DNA of 64,000 nt from Octopus vulgaris (taxonomy: Eukaryota): contig OX597837.1 in the NCBI GenBank assembly GCA_951406725.2, positions 21,638,001-21,702,000 on the forward strand. The letters are read 5' to 3'. The number at the start of each line of letters is the position of its first letter. The first letter of the stretch is position 1. The translations under genes were made by a program, and so were the position numbers. Positions 5,500 to 56,390 of the stretch are shown here, in pieces. The notes beneath the pieces are model-generated. The model was not told the DNA's origin and searched no databases. It worked only from the letters and a program-made list of their open reading frames with translations.

Positions 5500-6030
5500 A
5501 ACTGGCAGAGACACATAGAGATGACAGGACTGACACAGTCACATAGAATTGACAGTCACACAGACACAACACAATTACACAGGAACAACACAGTCACACT
5601 AAAGTATGAACAGTGACAAAAGAGCTGACACAGTGACACAAGAACTGTCACAGTGATACAAGAGCTGGTGCAGTCACACAAGAGCTGGAACAGTCACACA
5701 AGAGCTGGCACAGTGAGACACAAGAGCTGGTCCAGTCACTCAAGAGCTGTCACAGTGACACAAAGGCTGTCACAGTAATACAAGACCTGTCACAGTGGCA
5801 CAAGTGTTGTCACAGTGACACAAGAGCAGTCACAGTGACACAAGACCTGTCACAGTGGCACAAGTGTTGTCACAGTCACACAAGAGCAGGCAGTGACACA
5901 AAAGCTAGCACAGTAACACAAGAGCTGACACAGTAACACAAGAACTGGCACAGTTACATAAAAGCTAGCAGAGTGGCACAAAAGCTAGCACAGTGGCACA
6001 AGAGCTGACACGATGACACAAGTGCTGGCA
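5500..6030. repeat. 20-bp minisatellite (gtcacagtgacacaagagct), more than 20 copies
   Basis: Visible 20-nt periodicity, decaying at both ends. Confidence 0.92.
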
Positions 6031-27317: not shown

Positions 27318-27374
27318 CTGATGACTGATCATATTCTCCAATAAACCTTCTGGTAAGGAATCGGACAGACAATG
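27318..27374 (-). CDS. RERG: RERG-family small GTPase, 57-nt coding exon (switch I): (A)LSVRFLTRRFIGEYDQSS
   Basis: Minus strand reads ctttag|CATTG...TCATCAG|gtaagt, phase 1/1. The peptide matches the RERG-type ALxVRFLTxRFIxEYD segment. Assignment is to the family; exact orthology is untested. Confidence 0.9.
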
Positions 27375-27718
27375 CTAAAGAAGAGAGAGAGAGAGAAAAG
27401 TTACAATTACATTACTTTTTACATAGGTACAAGACGCACGAAGAATGAAATTTCCTCTTCAATAATACGACATAATGTTTGCAGTGAATTTCACCTTTCA
27501 ACCAATCATCTACATACTCTTTACTCTTTTACTTGTTTCAGTCATTTGACTGTGGCCATGCTGGAGCACCGCCTTTAGTTGAGCAAATCGACCCCAGGAC
27601 TTATTCTATCGGTCTCTTTTGCCGAACCGCTAAAAACACAGGGATGTAAACACACCAGCATTGGTTGTCAAGCGATGTTGGGGGGGGACAAACACCGACA
27701 CACAAAGACACACACACA

Positions 27719-31574: not shown

Positions 31575-32245
31575 TATCATCATTATCCTTTAATGTTTGC
31601 TTTCCATGCTAGCATGGGTTGGACGATTTGACTGAGGACTGGTGAACCAGATGGCTGAACCAGGCTCCAATCTTGATCTGGCAGAGTTTCTACAGCTGGA
31701 TGCCCTTCCTAACGCCAACCACTCCGAGAGTGTAGTTAGTGCTTTTACGTGCCACTGGCACGAGGGCCAGTCAGGCGGTACTGGCAACGGCCATGCTCAA
31801 ATGGTGTTTTTTACGTGCCACCTGCACAGGAGCCAGTCCAGCGGCACTGGCAAAGACCTCACTCGAATGTTTTTTCACGTGCCAGTAAGGCGATGCTGTT
31901 AACGATCATGCTCGAATGGTGCCTTCTACATGCCACCGGCATGGAAGCCAGTTAGCTGCTCTGGCAACGATCACGCTTGGATGATGCTCTTAGCGCTCCA
32001 CTAGCATGGAAGCCAGTCATCAAATTTGATTTCAATTTCACTTGCCTCAACAGGTCTTCGCAAGCAGAGTTTAGTGCCCAACGAAGGAGAGGTATGCATA
32101 AGTGGGTTGGTTACACCTCTGGCATAAGCCACAAGGTTATGGTCTCACTTGGCTTGCCGAGTCTTCTCACACACAGCATATTTCCAAAAGTCTCGGTCAC
32201 TAATCATTGCCTCGGTGAGGCCTAATGTTTGAAGGTCGTGCTTCA
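31575..32245 (-). mobile_element. SINE-like family C, long copy
   Basis: Family consensus with several internal repeats. Close relative at 48949-49497. Confidence 0.8.
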
Positions 32246-32335
32246 GGAAATGGAGATTTAAAATTGACATATTTTAAATGTAATTTATTAACATAATATT
32301 ATATTACAATTATAATATAATATGAATAGAAATAC

Positions 32336-32430
32336 AAATATTATTCCTACGAATTGTTTCGATTCATACCCAATAATGCATTTATATAAAATTCATACTT
32401 ATGGGTATGAATCTCATCAGGGAAATATTT
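32336..32430 (-). ncRNA. Type I hammerhead ribozyme, canonical core
   Basis: aaatatttcc CTGATGA gattcataccca...tgggtatgaatc GAAA c-aattc-g TA ggaataatattt. Stem II is 12 bp, stem I is 10 bp with a 2-nt bulge, site GUA. Confidence 0.8.
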
Positions 32431-32729
32431 GACAAAGTTAGACCATATTTCATGTAAGGATTGTTAATTTCTAGAGTAGACTGAATTAAATATGTCTGTA
32501 AGCGTGAACATCAATAATTTCAAAATATAATAAAAATAAAAAATTCAAATAAATAAAAACTAGTATAATGGTCATAAAATAGTCCTATGCACTTTTAATA
32601 ATACTAATCTAAAAATATTTCTGCCCATTATTTTTTATATAGAATATCTAAATAATAATATCATTTTTGGTTTTATCAATAGAGTCTATTGATAAAACCC
32701 AATCTATAAACATATAACACTTTCTACTC

Positions 32730-32850
32730 AAGCCCTGATGAGATTCTACCCAATATTATTCAAAATGCTATTTTATTATTATCATTGGATTTATTCCAGC
32801 CTTTGAATCTGCAATTATATATTGGATTGAAGTGAAATGTGTGTAGGCTT
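32730..32850 (+). ncRNA. Decayed type I hammerhead with long stem II
   Basis: aagcc CTGATGA gattctacccaatat...atattggattgaagt GAAA tgtgtg TA ggctt. tgtgtg is plausibly CpG-decayed cgcgcg. Confidence 0.6.
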
Positions 32851-32874
32851 TTTTGACTTTATTTTTGGTAGTAT

Positions 32875-33089
32875 ACTCTTTTACTTGTTTCAGTCATTTG
32901 ACTGCAGCCATGCTGGAGCACCGCCTTTAGTCGAGAAAATCGAACCCCAGGACTTATTCTTTGTAAGCCTAGTACTTATTCTATCAGTCTCTTATGCTGA
33001 ACCACTAAGTTACAGGGACATAAACACACCACTATCGGTTGTCAAGCGATGTTGGGGGAACAAACACAGACACACAAACATATACACGC

Positions 33090-33128
<39 letters not shown>

Positions 33129-33295
33129 TACAATGGGCCTCTTTCAGTTTCCGTCTACCAAATCCACTCACAAGGCTTTGGTTAGCCCGAGGCTATAGTC
33201 AAAGACACTTGCCCAAGGTGCCACACAGTGGGACTGAACCCAGAACCATGTGGTTGGTAAGCAAGCTACTTACCACACAGCCACTCCTGCGCCTA
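32875..33295 (-). mobile_element. SINE family A
   Basis: Full family consensus. Confidence 0.85.
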
Positions 33296-33380
33296 TGTTA
33301 AATTAATTTTATATCCTTACAAGCTCTCCATTCTTCTTCTTTAATCATATTATATATATATATGTGTACACACACATACA

Positions 33381-33645: not shown

Positions 33646-33654
<9 letters not shown>

Positions 33655-33933
33655 TAACAATGAGGGTCTTTGCAACAAGTTGCTAGACCACATACCGAAA
33701 GTATTAGAAATAGCAGCCAGATGACTGCCATTTCCTTTTACTACAAAAATATGTCTCCACAGACAACAGTATTTGTAACACATTATGTGGCAAAAATGAG
33801 TTACAAATACTGTTGTCTGTGGAGACATATTTTTGTAGTAAAAGGAAATGGCAGTCATCTGGCTGCTATTTCTAATACTTTCGGTATGTGGTCTAGCAAC
33901 TTGTTGCAAAGACCCTCATTGTTATAATTATAT
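33646..33933. repeat. Perfect palindrome, 134-bp arms, 20-nt spacer
   Basis: 33646-33779 is the reverse complement of 33800-33933. The ORF track gives near-identical peptides on both strands. Confidence 0.95.
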
Positions 33934-41990: not shown

Positions 41991-43275
41991 TCAGGTTGTC
42001 AAGAAAGTTCTTGCGGTGTTTAACCTTTAAATTCAGATGCACATATCTCGGCTCAAACAAAACTTTATTAATCGAAATAAGCACCATTAGAATCAGCACA
42101 CTTTTGCCAATGCGAAACAAGTTTATTTATGCCAGTAACATAAGAATCCTGCATTCTGGTGGTGATGAAGTCACTGAAGGCGTGTTTGGCATCGTCTTGG
42201 TTTTTGAAGCAAATCTCACACAGGAAGTTGTTGAGATGCTTGAAAAAATGGTAGTCGATAGGCTAGAGGTCTGGTGAGTATGGCAGATGAGGTAGAGTTT
42301 CATAGCCCAATTCGTTTAACTTCTGCAGGGTCAGTTGTGCAACGTGTGGTCGAATGTTGTCATGGAGAAGAATTGGTCCTTTTCTATTGACCAATGCTGG
42401 CTGTTGTTGTCGGTGTTTCTTATGCATTTCATCCATTTACTGACAGCACTTCTCCACCATAATGGTTTTGCCTGGATCCAAAAAGCTGTGATGGATGAGA
42501 CCAGTCACAGACCACCAAACAGTCACCATGACCTTCTTTCGCTGCAACTTTGGTTTCAGGAAGTGCCATGGAGCTTCACTGGCATCCAACCACTGGACTG
42601 AGCATTGCCGGTTGTCGTAAAGAATCCACTTTTCATCACAAGTCACAATCTGGTCGAAAAATAGGTCGTTCTTGTTGCGTAAAAGAAGGGAAGACGACAC
42701 TTCAGAACAGTGTTTTTTTGGTAGTCGTTCAATTTATGCAGCACCCATTTCTCAAGTATTTTTGTTTTTCCAATCTCTTTCAAGTCATTGGAAATTGTTG
42801 TATACATTACGTCTAATTCAGAAGCAAGCTCTTGAACAGTTGTGCATGGATTGGCTTCCACAAAGGCTCATAGTTGATCGTTGTCAACATCTGATGACTG
42901 ACCACTACGCTTATCATCTCAAGACTCTCATCACCGCTACGAAATTTCTTGAACCACCATTGTGCTGTACGTTCATTGGTGGTTCCTGGGTCAAATGCAT
43001 TGTTGATATTGTGAGCTGTTTTAGCAGCTTTTCGGCCTAGCTTGAACTGGAATTAAAAAAATTGTGCGAATTTGCTTTTTGTCTGTGTCATATTCAACGT
43101 TCAGCAAAAAATGGCCTAATTAGTCAAATAGAAAGAAAATAACACAATTAGATAGAGTGAAAAACGGGCTTTAAAATGATATATAAAGTCAAAGTAATTT
43201 AACAAAAATTAATTTGCAAATACATCATTTAAAGCCCAAATTAAAAATTCCGCAAGAACTTTCTTGACAACCTAA
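41991..43275 (-). mobile_element. Full-length (about 1285 bp) mariner with pseudogenised transposase
   Basis: TA|tcaggttgtcaagaaagttcttgcgg ... ccgcaagaactttcttgacaacctaa|TA. Motifs KWVLHKL, IVTCDEKWILYDN and KKVMVTVWW. Confidence 0.93.
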
Positions 43276-52375: not shown

Positions 52376-53184
52376 ATAATCCTTTTTTACTATAGGCACA
52401 AGGCTTGAAATTTGGGGGAAGGGGGCCAGTGGATTAGATTGACTCCAGTACGCAACTGGTACTTAATTTATCGATCATCCCCCACCCCCAGGATGAAAAG
52501 CAAAGTTGACCTCAGTGGAATTTGAACTCAGAACATAAAGACAAAATACCACTAAGCATTTCGCCCCACATGCTAACGATTCTGCCAGCTCGCTGCCTTG
52601 ATTAAAAGAAATAATAATAATAATAATTCTGTCTACTACTGGCAGAAAGCATGAAATCTGGGGCATGTGGACGAGTCAATGACAACATCCCCAATATTTG
52701 ACGAGTATTTATTTAATCAGCCTTAAAAGGATGAAAGGCAAAGTTGATCTCAGAGGAATTTGAATCCAGAATGAAATGTCAAGAAATGCTGCTAAGCATT
52801 TTGTCCATTGTGCTAATCAATTTTGTCAGTTTGCCGCCTTTATAAGTGTTTCAAATTTTTGGCACAAGGCTGGCAATTTGAGAAGAGAGGCTAAATTGAT
52901 TGCATCAAGCCCTAGTTCTCAAATGGAACTTATTAAGTGATCCCAAAAGGATAAAAGGCAAAGTTAACCTTGATGGAATCTGAACTCAGAACATAAAGCA
53001 ACAGAAGAAATGCTACAAAGCACTCTGTCCAATGTGCTAATGACTCTGCCAACTCATTACTTTAACAATCCTTTCTATTATAGGCATGGGGTCTGAAATT
53101 TTGAGGGAGGGAACTAGTCTATAACATCAACCCCAGTACATTATTTACATTCGACAGATATTTGTCCTCATCTTGTTTGTTGTT

Positions 53185-53230
53185 AACACAACGTTTCGGC
53201 TGATATACCCTCCAGCCTTCTTCAGGTGTC
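53185..53230 (-). ncRNA. Minimal type I hammerhead (inverted copy)
   Basis: gacac CTGAAGA a ggctg-gagggtatat-cagcc GAAA cg TT gtgtt. Confidence 0.72.
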
Positions 53231-53473
53231 TTGGGGAAATTTCAAACCTAGGTTCTCATTCCTAGGGTATTTTTCGATGTTATTATTATTATTATTGTTA
53301 TTGTTCAGGTCATTGCTTGGAATGCCCACGGACATATGGCATAGTGGTTAAGAGCACAGGCTACTAACCCCAAGATTCCGAGTTCGATTGCAAGCAGTGA
53401 CCTAAACAATAATAATAATAACAACATCAAAAAATACCTTAGGAATGAGAACCCAGGTTCGAAATTTCTCCAA

Positions 53474-53516
53474 GACACCTGATGAAGGCTAGAGGGTATA
53501 TCAGCCGAAATGTGTT
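53474..53516 (+). ncRNA. Hammerhead copy with a 3-nt deletion in stem III
   Basis: gacac CTGATGA a ggcta...cagcc GAAA t gtgtt. Confidence 0.6.
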
Positions 53517-54680
53517 AACAACAAACAAGATGACAAATATCCATCAAATGTAAGGAATGTAAATAATCTACATAATTCCTCATCTCTTAAATATAGAACT
53601 GTATCAATCCCAGTGTTTCACTGGTACTTAATTTGTTGACCCCAAAAGGACGAAAGGTAATGTTGACCTCAGCAGAATTTGAACTCAGAATATAAAGAGA
53701 CAAAGAAATGCTATTAAGCAATTTTATGTGCTAATGACTGCCAGCTCATCACTTTAATATTAATAACTCTTTCTATTGTAGGCTCAAGGCCTTAAAAGTT
53801 GATCTTGGTGGAATTTGAACTCAGAATGCAAAGGCAGATGAAATGTTGCTAAGCATTGTCTGGCATGCTAACAATTCTGCCAGCTCACTGCTTTAGTAAT
53901 AAACAATAATGATAATAATGGTTTCAGATTTTGGTACAAGGCCAGCAACTTCAGGGGAAGGGTAGGTCGATTACACCAATTCTAGTGTTCAACTAGTACT
54001 TATTTTATCAACCCTGAGAGGAGGGGAGGCAAAGTTGATCTCAGTGGAATTTGAACTCAGAATGTATAAGATGGACAAAATGCCACTAAGCATTTTGCCT
54101 GGTCAGCTAATAATTTGGCCAGCTCACCATAATCATCATCATCATCGATTAACGTCCGTTCTCCATGCTAGCATGGGTTGGACGGTTCGACCAGGGATCT
54201 GGGAAGCCAGAAGGCTGCACCAGGCTCCAGTCTTATCTGGCAATGTTTCTACAGCTGGATGCCCTTCCTAACGCCAACCACTCCATGAGTGTAGTGGGTG
54301 CTTTTTATGTGCCACCCGCACAGGTGCCAGGCGAGGCTGGTGCCTCAACAAGGGAGGAAAGGCATGCATAAGTGGGCTGGGCTCTAATAATAATAATAAT
54401 AATGATAACCTTTTCTACTAAAGGCACAAGGCCTGAAATTTGTGGGGAGGTGACTAGTTGATTACATCGACCCCAGTGTTTCACTGGTACTTAATTTATT
54501 GACCCTGAAAGGATGAAAAGCAAAGTTGACCTCAGCAGAATTTGTACTCAGAACATAGTGGACAGACAAAATACCACTAAGCATTTTGCCCAGTATACTA
54601 ACAATTCTGCCAGCTTGCTGCCTTAAAAATAAATAAATAAATAATAATAATAATAATGATAATAATAATAATAATAATGA

Positions 54681-55162: not shown

Positions 55163-56064
55163 CCTAGGCCCAGGAGTGGCTGTGTGGTAAGTAGCTTGCT
55201 TACCAACCACATGGTTCTAGGTTCAGTCCCACTGCGTGGCACCATGGGCAAGTGTCTTCTACTATAGCCTCGGGCCCACCAAAGACTTGTGAGTGGATTT
55301 GGTAGACGGAAACTGAAAGAAGCCCATCATGTATATGTATATATATATGTATGTGTTTGTTTGACTGTGTTTGTCTCCCCAACATCGCTTGACAACCAAT
55401 GTTGGTGTGTTTACATCCCTGTAACTTAGCGGTTCGGCAAAAGCAGACCGATAGAATAAGTACTAGGCTTACAAAGAATAAGTCCTGGGGTCGATTTGCT
55501 TGACTAAAGGTGGTGCTCCAGCATGGCTGCACTCAAATGACTGAAACAAGTAAAAGAGTAAAAGAGAGTAGTGACAGGCACAAAGCCTGAAGCTTGGGGA
55601 AAGTAATTATGTCAATTACATCGACCACAGCGCACAACTGGTACTTATTTTATCGATCCTCAAAAGATGAAAGGCAAAGTCAACCACGGTGGAATTTGAA
55701 CTCAGAACGTAAAGTGAGAAGAAATGCCACTAAACATTTTTTCCAGTGTGCTAATGATGATTCTGCTTAATAATAATAATAATAATAATAATAAATTCAT
55801 TTTATTGGCCACAAGGGCTGACAAACATGATTGGAAAACATAAAGGGACAAAACAGGACGAAAAGTTACAAAGGGTTTTGTCCGTTTGTGAAAAAAATCG
55901 TGTAAAAACAGTGTAACAATCAAATAATATAACAATGAAAAATTCCCAATAGGGGGAGGTGTTACGAAAGGTTCCTGGTGGAAAAACCCATAAAAGCCAA
56001 CGGGAGCCTGGTCAAAAGGCGGGTAGAGAGCCCAGAAGGTGGAACATCTAAAGATTCCCATTTG

Positions 56065-56390
56065 GTGTACGCTGCAGAATGTACGAAACACAACTTAATC
56101 TATGTTGGTTGCACAACACAACAATTAAACAAAAAGGTTTAATGGGCACAGATTCGACGTCAGGCACAATAACAGTAGTTCGACAGAACTTGCTGAACAT
56201 TTCATTTCAAACGTCTGCAATTTTGAAAAAGACTTGAAAGTGTATATTCTCAGAAAATATTCTGAATCTGCTTCACTTTCACTTCTTAAAATGCATGAGG
56301 ACAAATAGGTTTGCTGGTTATTAACATCACACCCTGGAGGAATGAATAAGACGACAGGAGAATATCATCAAATTTATACAAAACTACTAC
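56065..56390 (+). mobile_element. Penelope-like element GIY-YIG endonuclease relic
   Basis: VYAAECTKHNLIYVGCTTQQL, frameshift, RFNGHR...LAEHF...EDK*V..L.T..PGGMN. Confidence 0.8.

Follow-up and report, generated by a model that had tools for sequence, protein, structure and literature searches.

Two hammerhead ribozyme motifs, here termed HHR1 and HHR2, stand on opposite strands of a 625-bp insert (32246 to about 32870) in an octopus intron; the window referred to throughout is the whole 64-kb stretch of DNA that was analyzed. Most probably, the insert consists of two fragments of Penelope-type 3' ends joined head to head, whose hammerheads cut in dimeric form in the parent elements and have since become inactive here. 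It looks like an ordinary transposon relic rather than a working ribozyme, and the only points of note are its long helix II and a predicted antisense lock. The features on which this reading is built are collected in Table 1.

Table 1. Features of the hammerhead insert and its surroundings (window positions)
Feature	Position	Strand	Remarks
RERG-like exon	27319..27375	-	P0001 residues 47-65; first exon downstream of the hammerhead pair
AT-rich sequence 3' of HHR1	32246..32334	-	common to other family copies; ends at the junction, 32245
HHR1, type I hammerhead	32335..32431	-	11-bp stem I, 2-nt bulge, intact core, 2-bp helix III
HHR1 predicted cleavage site	32347..32348	-	after GUA, A17 = 32348
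HHR1 helix III	32349..32357	-	32351 departs from the family majority, near-palindrome broken
Spacer	32432..32727		21% GC, stops in all six of six frames
Perfect palindrome	32669..32699		15-bp arms around 32684
HHR2, decayed type I hammerhead	32728..32856	+	core letters intact, helix II 92 nt
Complement of HHR2 5' half	32733..32752	-	predicted pairing with HHR1 32402-32422, 20 bp, -34.9 kcal/mol
HHR2 predicted site	after 32845	+	within HHR2
High-copy interspersed repeat	32874..33298 (right end approximate)	+	starts shortly past the 3' end of HHR2; recurs many times in the window

HHR1 has the conserved core letters of a type I hammerhead at a three-way junction, with helix I open. The initial annotation, made on the sequence before this analysis, had claimed every core nucleotide for the minus-strand copy, together with a perfect 12-bp stem II, and both were located: C3-A9 lies at 32420-32414 of the minus strand and G12-A15.1 at 32360-32357, and 12 of 12 pairs are formed between 32413-32402 and 32361-32372. 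The bulge that it described in stem I is also present, although the stem counts 11 pairs (4 and 7 flanking a bulge of 2 nt) and not 10. Helix III comprises two pairs, followed by an A-C mismatch. The GUA site falls where it had been placed, cleavage between 32348 and 32347 being a prediction. Helix II is 53 nt long, with an imperfect upper hairpin above the 12 perfect base pairs, and exceeds the length of the usual loop 1/loop 2 geometry.

The plus-strand relative, which had been put about 300 nt away, was measured at 315 nt from core to core (its own starts at 32735), and the two are identical at 20 of the 21 bases that align about their cores. Only one of the pair had been credited with an intact canonical core; this was too strict, as HHR2 retains all of the core letters and has its defects confined to the stems. 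The base of its stem II is damaged, the first pair being G-U and the second A-G, and G-U pairs make up most of helix III.

The stretch, or part of it, is contained in 20 of 24 public sequencing runs, which carry five organism labels and were searched as assembled contigs. Four of them (X1, X8, X9, and X19) were compared at 80% likeness, on the basis of 40 listed difference rows out of 205, 15 joints out of 27, and 32 records out of 12,844; contig counts are lower bounds and are not copy numbers. Variant letters reach maxima of at least 19 (X1), 17 (X8), and 24 (X9) contigs at positions of HHR1, and of at least 17, 13, and 14, respectively, at positions of HHR2. The linker at 32662-32674, in contrast, has a depth of 1 (X1), 2 (X8), and 2 (X9) contigs, and 32641-32678 is covered by one or two contigs per run. 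Because the motifs are multicopy and the linker is low-copy, each motif belongs to an old dispersed family, and the head-to-head junction is a local one. Paralogues of the HHR1 unit can be aligned as far as 32615-32641. Four HHR2 paralogues among those listed start at 32725/6, with dissimilar sequence upstream, and one from X19 reaches 32678. The listed paralogues differ, for the most part, by about 8-18%, and they have the ribozyme in common but mostly not the flanks. As in a Penelope terminal repeat, the hammerhead is the conserved part of a dispersed multicopy repeat. The linker is crossed into HHR2 by one contig each in X1, X8, and X9 (2, 2, and 8 differences plus 3 gaps); a check of the orthologous site, which had been proposed at the outset, gave a positive answer for the linker-HHR2 junction, common to these three organism labels. 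None of the runs with the stretch is listed as RNA, and X19, which also has paralogue contigs, is an RNA run by guess only; one of these contigs ends 2 nt past the predicted site, but assembled contigs are uninformative about ends, strand, and level.

In the explanation that we favor, two 5'-truncated 3' ends of Penelope-like retroelements or their non-autonomous derivatives, belonging to two related subfamilies, would have been joined head to head at a single locus. The hammerhead of the active parent would have cut multimeric transcripts as a dimer through its near-palindromic helix III, a known mechanism that is carried over to this family, and both copies would have decayed after insertion. 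During transcription of the host gene, the HHR2 complement would emerge ahead of HHR1 and bind its core together with the stem II 5' arm; HHR1 would then stay unfolded, and the intron is predicted to go uncut. The Penelope-type parent, the neutrality of the insert, and its inactivity in vivo are what we infer from these features. Against this explanation, the arms containing HHR1 and HHR2 have only about 21 nt in common and are not mirror copies of one element, which sets them apart from the classic inverted 5'-truncated copy.

It is unlikely, but conceivable, that the motifs are instead solo monomers of a non-LTR retrozyme, in which tandem repeats of 170-400 nt give rise to circular RNAs, and not the ends of coding Penelope elements. 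The two explanations are close, because bioRxiv 10.64898/2026.07.22.740005 derives retrozymes from Penelope ends. A retrozyme would account for a type I fold that lacks the additional nucleotide seen in minimal motifs, the low GC content, the lack of an ORF, and the length of the HHR1 unit (about 400 nt); retrozymes are known in a mussel, as described in the relevant part of PMC7229834, and leave dispersed monomers according to the pertinent sections of the same bioRxiv article. They are, however, arranged as same-strand tandems, and there is no array at this locus. Furthermore, none of the joints listed (15 of 27) is a unit-length head-to-tail return, and the paralogues mostly have the ribozyme in common without its flanks.

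Two exons in the window match the Ras family, and the best homologue is P0001, a protein of Octopus vulgaris that its source record annotates as RERG-like. Its residues 47-214 are 100% identical to the translations of four minus-strand exons (27375-27319, 9298-9224, 5412-5203, and 2894-2730), and residues 1-46, the first coding exon, are absent from the window. Judged from the protein record, the hammerhead pair lies within an intron of more than 36 kb of the RERG-like GTPase gene with HHR1 in the sense orientation, in agreement with what had been claimed for the minus copy. A 20-nt minisatellite of 21 copies (5610-6030) adjoins one of the host-gene exons. At 32245, 102 nt from HHR1, the insert adjoins an interrupted repeat; both of its ends, considered for a one-sided tail of 30-40 bp, abut other repeats. 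An AT-rich near-palindrome of 28 nt (26/28) is found 3' of HHR1 at 32296-32323. The perfect palindrome of the spacer may be a fold-back junction. No RT or GIY-YIG frame was found beside either hammerhead, so that no parent element came to light, and 32246-32870 has no ORF, the fragments perhaps being too short.

HHR1 departs from its family at 32351, where a letter that pairs in helix III carries 89-93% of depth in X1, X8, and X9, the three larger runs. Computed for the 9-nt helix III, the self-dimer energy is -4.1 kcal/mol with the family letter and +4.3 kcal/mol for the window copy. The short near-palindromic helix III of Penelope terminal repeats is therefore present in the family majority and broken in the window copy, and the loss of dimer pairing is a computed one. 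The initial annotation held that the 2-bp helix III of the minus copy may require dimerization, and a helix this short does point to cleavage as a dimer. Elsewhere in HHR1, a family pair has become a mismatch at 32379. In HHR2, the family letter at 32832 restores a stem II pair, and 32842 is C in at least 2, 3, and 8 contigs of X1, X8, and X9 (41, 65, and 73% of depth); the CpG-type decay that had been ascribed to the plus copy is supported to this extent, at the one position tested.

In HHR1, the majority differences that were listed all spare the core (12 positions) and stem II (24 positions). This fits retained function, although chance would produce it with a P of about 0.15. Among the rows listed, differences affect 5 of 97 positions within the motif, against 11 of 80 in the sequence upstream of it (Fisher p = 0.06). 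Neither result is significant, both apply to the 40 of 205 difference rows listed, and selection during the active life of the element would yield the same pattern.

Folding of the host strand adds a second, predicted obstacle to cleavage. ViennaRNA gives equilibrium predictions, with the hammerhead core, kinetics, tertiary structure, and bound proteins outside the model. On this basis, the complement of the 5' half of HHR2 is predicted to pair with the HHR1 core plus the stem II 5' arm in a duplex considerably more stable than the stem II hairpin of HHR1 (-19.3 kcal/mol). When 32246-32870 is folded, the core duplex has P 0.98 and stem II 0.03; for 32100-33000, the values are 0.93 and 0.21. 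Before synthesis of the stem II 3' arm, the core duplex is predicted at P 0.99, and on the host strand the masking complement is transcribed ahead of HHR1, by about 300 nt. Omission of HHR2 returns stem II of HHR1 to P 0.96. The same P of 0.96 is obtained for a construct of 32320-32445, outside of which the masking complement lies. The plus strand is predicted to be masked likewise (P 0.98). Even without HHR2, distal stem I has a P of 0.03 in context. Helix III has a predicted P of 0.4% even in isolated HHR1, and folding alone therefore cannot rule out activity.

A very unlikely alternative is that HHR1 has remained active or been co-opted, so that the RERG-like pre-mRNA is cut within the long intron. 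The core, the 12-bp stem II, and the 11-bp stem I are intact, the motif is sense to the gene, the listed differences are fewer inside it than upstream, and amniotes have intronic hammerheads, as reported in the relevant section of PMC6765202. Against this, helix III is disrupted in comparison with the family, the 64-kb window has no second same-strand copy of the motif, and the core is predicted to be masked in the host-strand transcript, with little of distal stem I predicted to form in context even if HHR2 is left out. In the part of PMC4209133 on related metazoan motifs, single copies cleave weakly or not at all, and in the cleavage assays of bioRxiv 10.64898/2026.07.22.740005, 8 of 9 predicted retrozyme dimers failed to cleave. 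HHR1 had been put forward as the best candidate for a still-active ribozyme. What emerges is a worn member of a multicopy family that has lost its helix III near-palindrome, and the suggestion of continued activity is weakened further by the missing same-strand partner and the predicted masking. Activity of isolated HHR1 in vitro is possible, but since the neighboring inverted copy is predicted to mask HHR1, testing it on its own would give a misleading picture.

A more radical proposal, very improbable even with its two versions taken together, is that the motifs are the two polarities of an ambisense element, left in DNA by a viroid-like circular RNA that spread in octopus genomes, each ribozyme being kept inactive by base-pairing to the other's complement, or, in weaker form, that head-to-head placement acts as an antisense lock, which lets a sense intronic ribozyme persist, with conditional release. 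As for the specific case, in which the insert derives from a single ambisense viroid-like RNA that carried hammerheads on both polarities and folded into a rod, we give it very little credence. The opposite-polarity hammerheads are able to pair mutually, the 551-nt region has a more stable fold than all 100 of its shuffles (z -3.37), and one X19 contig runs from the right arm of the palindrome into a motif resembling HHR2. However, inheritance as one unit is not what the contigs indicate, as the linker is found in 1-2 contigs and each motif in 13-24 at 80% likeness, and the listed paralogues continue for 60-370 nt into dissimilar sequence. Local hairpins, together with the inverted repeat of 21 nt, account for most of the fold. 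No matches were obtained in viral contigs, which were searched with two spacings of the core pattern. Were the ambisense reading true, viroid-like RNAs would have an animal equivalent in this locus, one that became fixed in DNA.

A chance resemblance to hammerheads in AT-rich DNA has next to no probability, for although Rfam returned no hammerhead among 112 matches in the whole window (E<=1) or 6 in the local region (E<=10), and a loose type I descriptor matched 26 of 300 block-wise dinucleotide shuffles, none of the 300 had a match with a stem II of at least 6 bp, and the idea is already contradicted by both motifs being the conserved multicopy part of a repeat. HHR1 was the sole match of the type I descriptor across the 64-kb window, and its long helix II probably falls outside the Rfam hammerhead models, hence the Rfam miss. 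A search of metagenome contigs with an exact 20-mer found none, and a gapped core pattern found five loci, which were rejected as relatives. Three are prokaryote-like coding DNA, one of these passing the loose descriptor through short stems; the other two represent one common non-coding motif that fails the type I descriptor. This motif (L003 559-646, plus strand; L004 1891-1978, minus strand) has both hammerhead core halves, separated by a long AT-rich hairpin; it may form a pseudoknot with sequence on its upstream side and is followed by C-rich repeats.

Divergent pairs recur within the 64 kb, as a second one is present at 53137-53561. A relaxed scan identified a minimal hammerhead at 53225 (minus strand), and a pattern search identified another at 53479 (plus strand). 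Here the mirror arms do belong to one element, with 79.5% identity and the minimal hammerheads head to head, as in an inverted copy of the same element, and the region folds as one long hairpin. The right arm alone has an extension of about 50 nt (53137-53610). By eye, the center of the pair (about 53335-53405) resembles a tRNA-type promoter; ARAGORN and Rfam gave no tRNA or RNA family there, and no hammerhead family was found by Rfam. The second pair is possibly a tRNA-headed non-autonomous derivative of Penelope.

Other mobile elements have also left remnants in the window. A frameshifted Penelope-type GIY-YIG endonuclease remnant lies at 55940-56380 (plus strand; weak Pfam match, E 0.062). 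No hammerhead was found behind it, and a protein search with the remnant at 55942 scored 0 of 9 candidates. The plus-strand segment 33380-33520 presumably resembles the C terminus of a Tc1/mariner transposase. A fold-back at 33646-33933, with 139-nt arms that are 99% complementary around a 10-nt spacer, begins at a TA microsatellite and has no Pfam match. At 42440-42730 of the minus strand, there is a mariner-type transposase remnant (PF01359, E 1e-18).

What the two motifs add to a known class is a hammerhead family of octopus that seems not to have been described before and whose helix II is unusually long; no description of such a family was found in the literature, mostly open-access, to which the search was confined. 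If the masking holds genome-wide, it would provide a simple reason for the tolerance of sense-strand ribozyme insertions in introns.

The surroundings in which hammerheads have been reported offer several points of comparison. In the relevant part of PMC6765202, Penelope-like elements insert adjacent to one another and need dimers, and PMC11167929 includes an account of a Penelope hammerhead for which cleavage requires protein. The sections of PMC4209133 (Cervera and de la Pena 2014) on dual hammerheads describe minimal motifs on opposite strands, 100-700 bp apart, among truncated Penelope-like elements, in which helix III is palindromic and cleavage is low or absent. The octopus pair is like them in its opposite-strand spacing, in being dispersed and heterogeneous, and presumably in weak or dimer-dependent activity. 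They differ in carrying one more nucleotide ahead of stem II and in nearly lacking helix III, neither of which applies to HHR1 and HHR2, and HHR1 and HHR2 come from two different subfamilies, unlike the pairs of that study. With non-LTR retrozymes, as characterized in the pertinent passages of PMC7229834 and bioRxiv 10.64898/2026.07.22.740005, the locus shares non-coding, low-GC, type I, dispersed monomers; retrozymes are nevertheless defined by same-strand tandems and circular RNAs, and tandems are lacking here.

The remaining comparisons are with the Penelope-like elements of PMC8557442 (Craig et al. 2021), taken from the portions of the article and its File S2 that concern hammerheads. The octopus sequences recorded there, namely one Hydra-clade motif and three Naiad ends, differ in sequence from the family of HHR1 and HHR2. 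A Naiad origin, hinted at by an 'HHR_half_core' in Naiad_Ovul, was rejected, the three octopus Naiad 3' ends being without the motif by eye; a 12-mer search of the supplement to PMC8557442 gave no match in the text as supplied, in which line breaks could mask one. Helix II in the Hydra-clade rows has a stem of 3-7 bp and a loop of 3-10 nt, and its lengths of 53 and 92 nt here are far greater. A precedent for an extended helix II is found in two spike-moss PLE-X1 rows of File S2, the only ones in which loop 2 is long (35 and 29 nt); these elements are from a plant and targeted to rDNA, unlike the octopus pair. Inverted 5'-truncated copies are described as typical in the relevant parts of PMC8557442 and its preprint, and one Hydra-clade family in File S2 has an inverted 5' copy that gives a divergent pair. 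One Hydra-clade family in that file comes from octopus. Like HHR1, the Hydra-clade hammerheads are of type I and lie near the 3' end with an AT-rich tail. By our own count, 20 of the 26 Hydra-clade rows have a 9-nt near-palindromic helix III of the form AC...GU, and it is this form that the 9-nt helix III of the octopus family majority matches.
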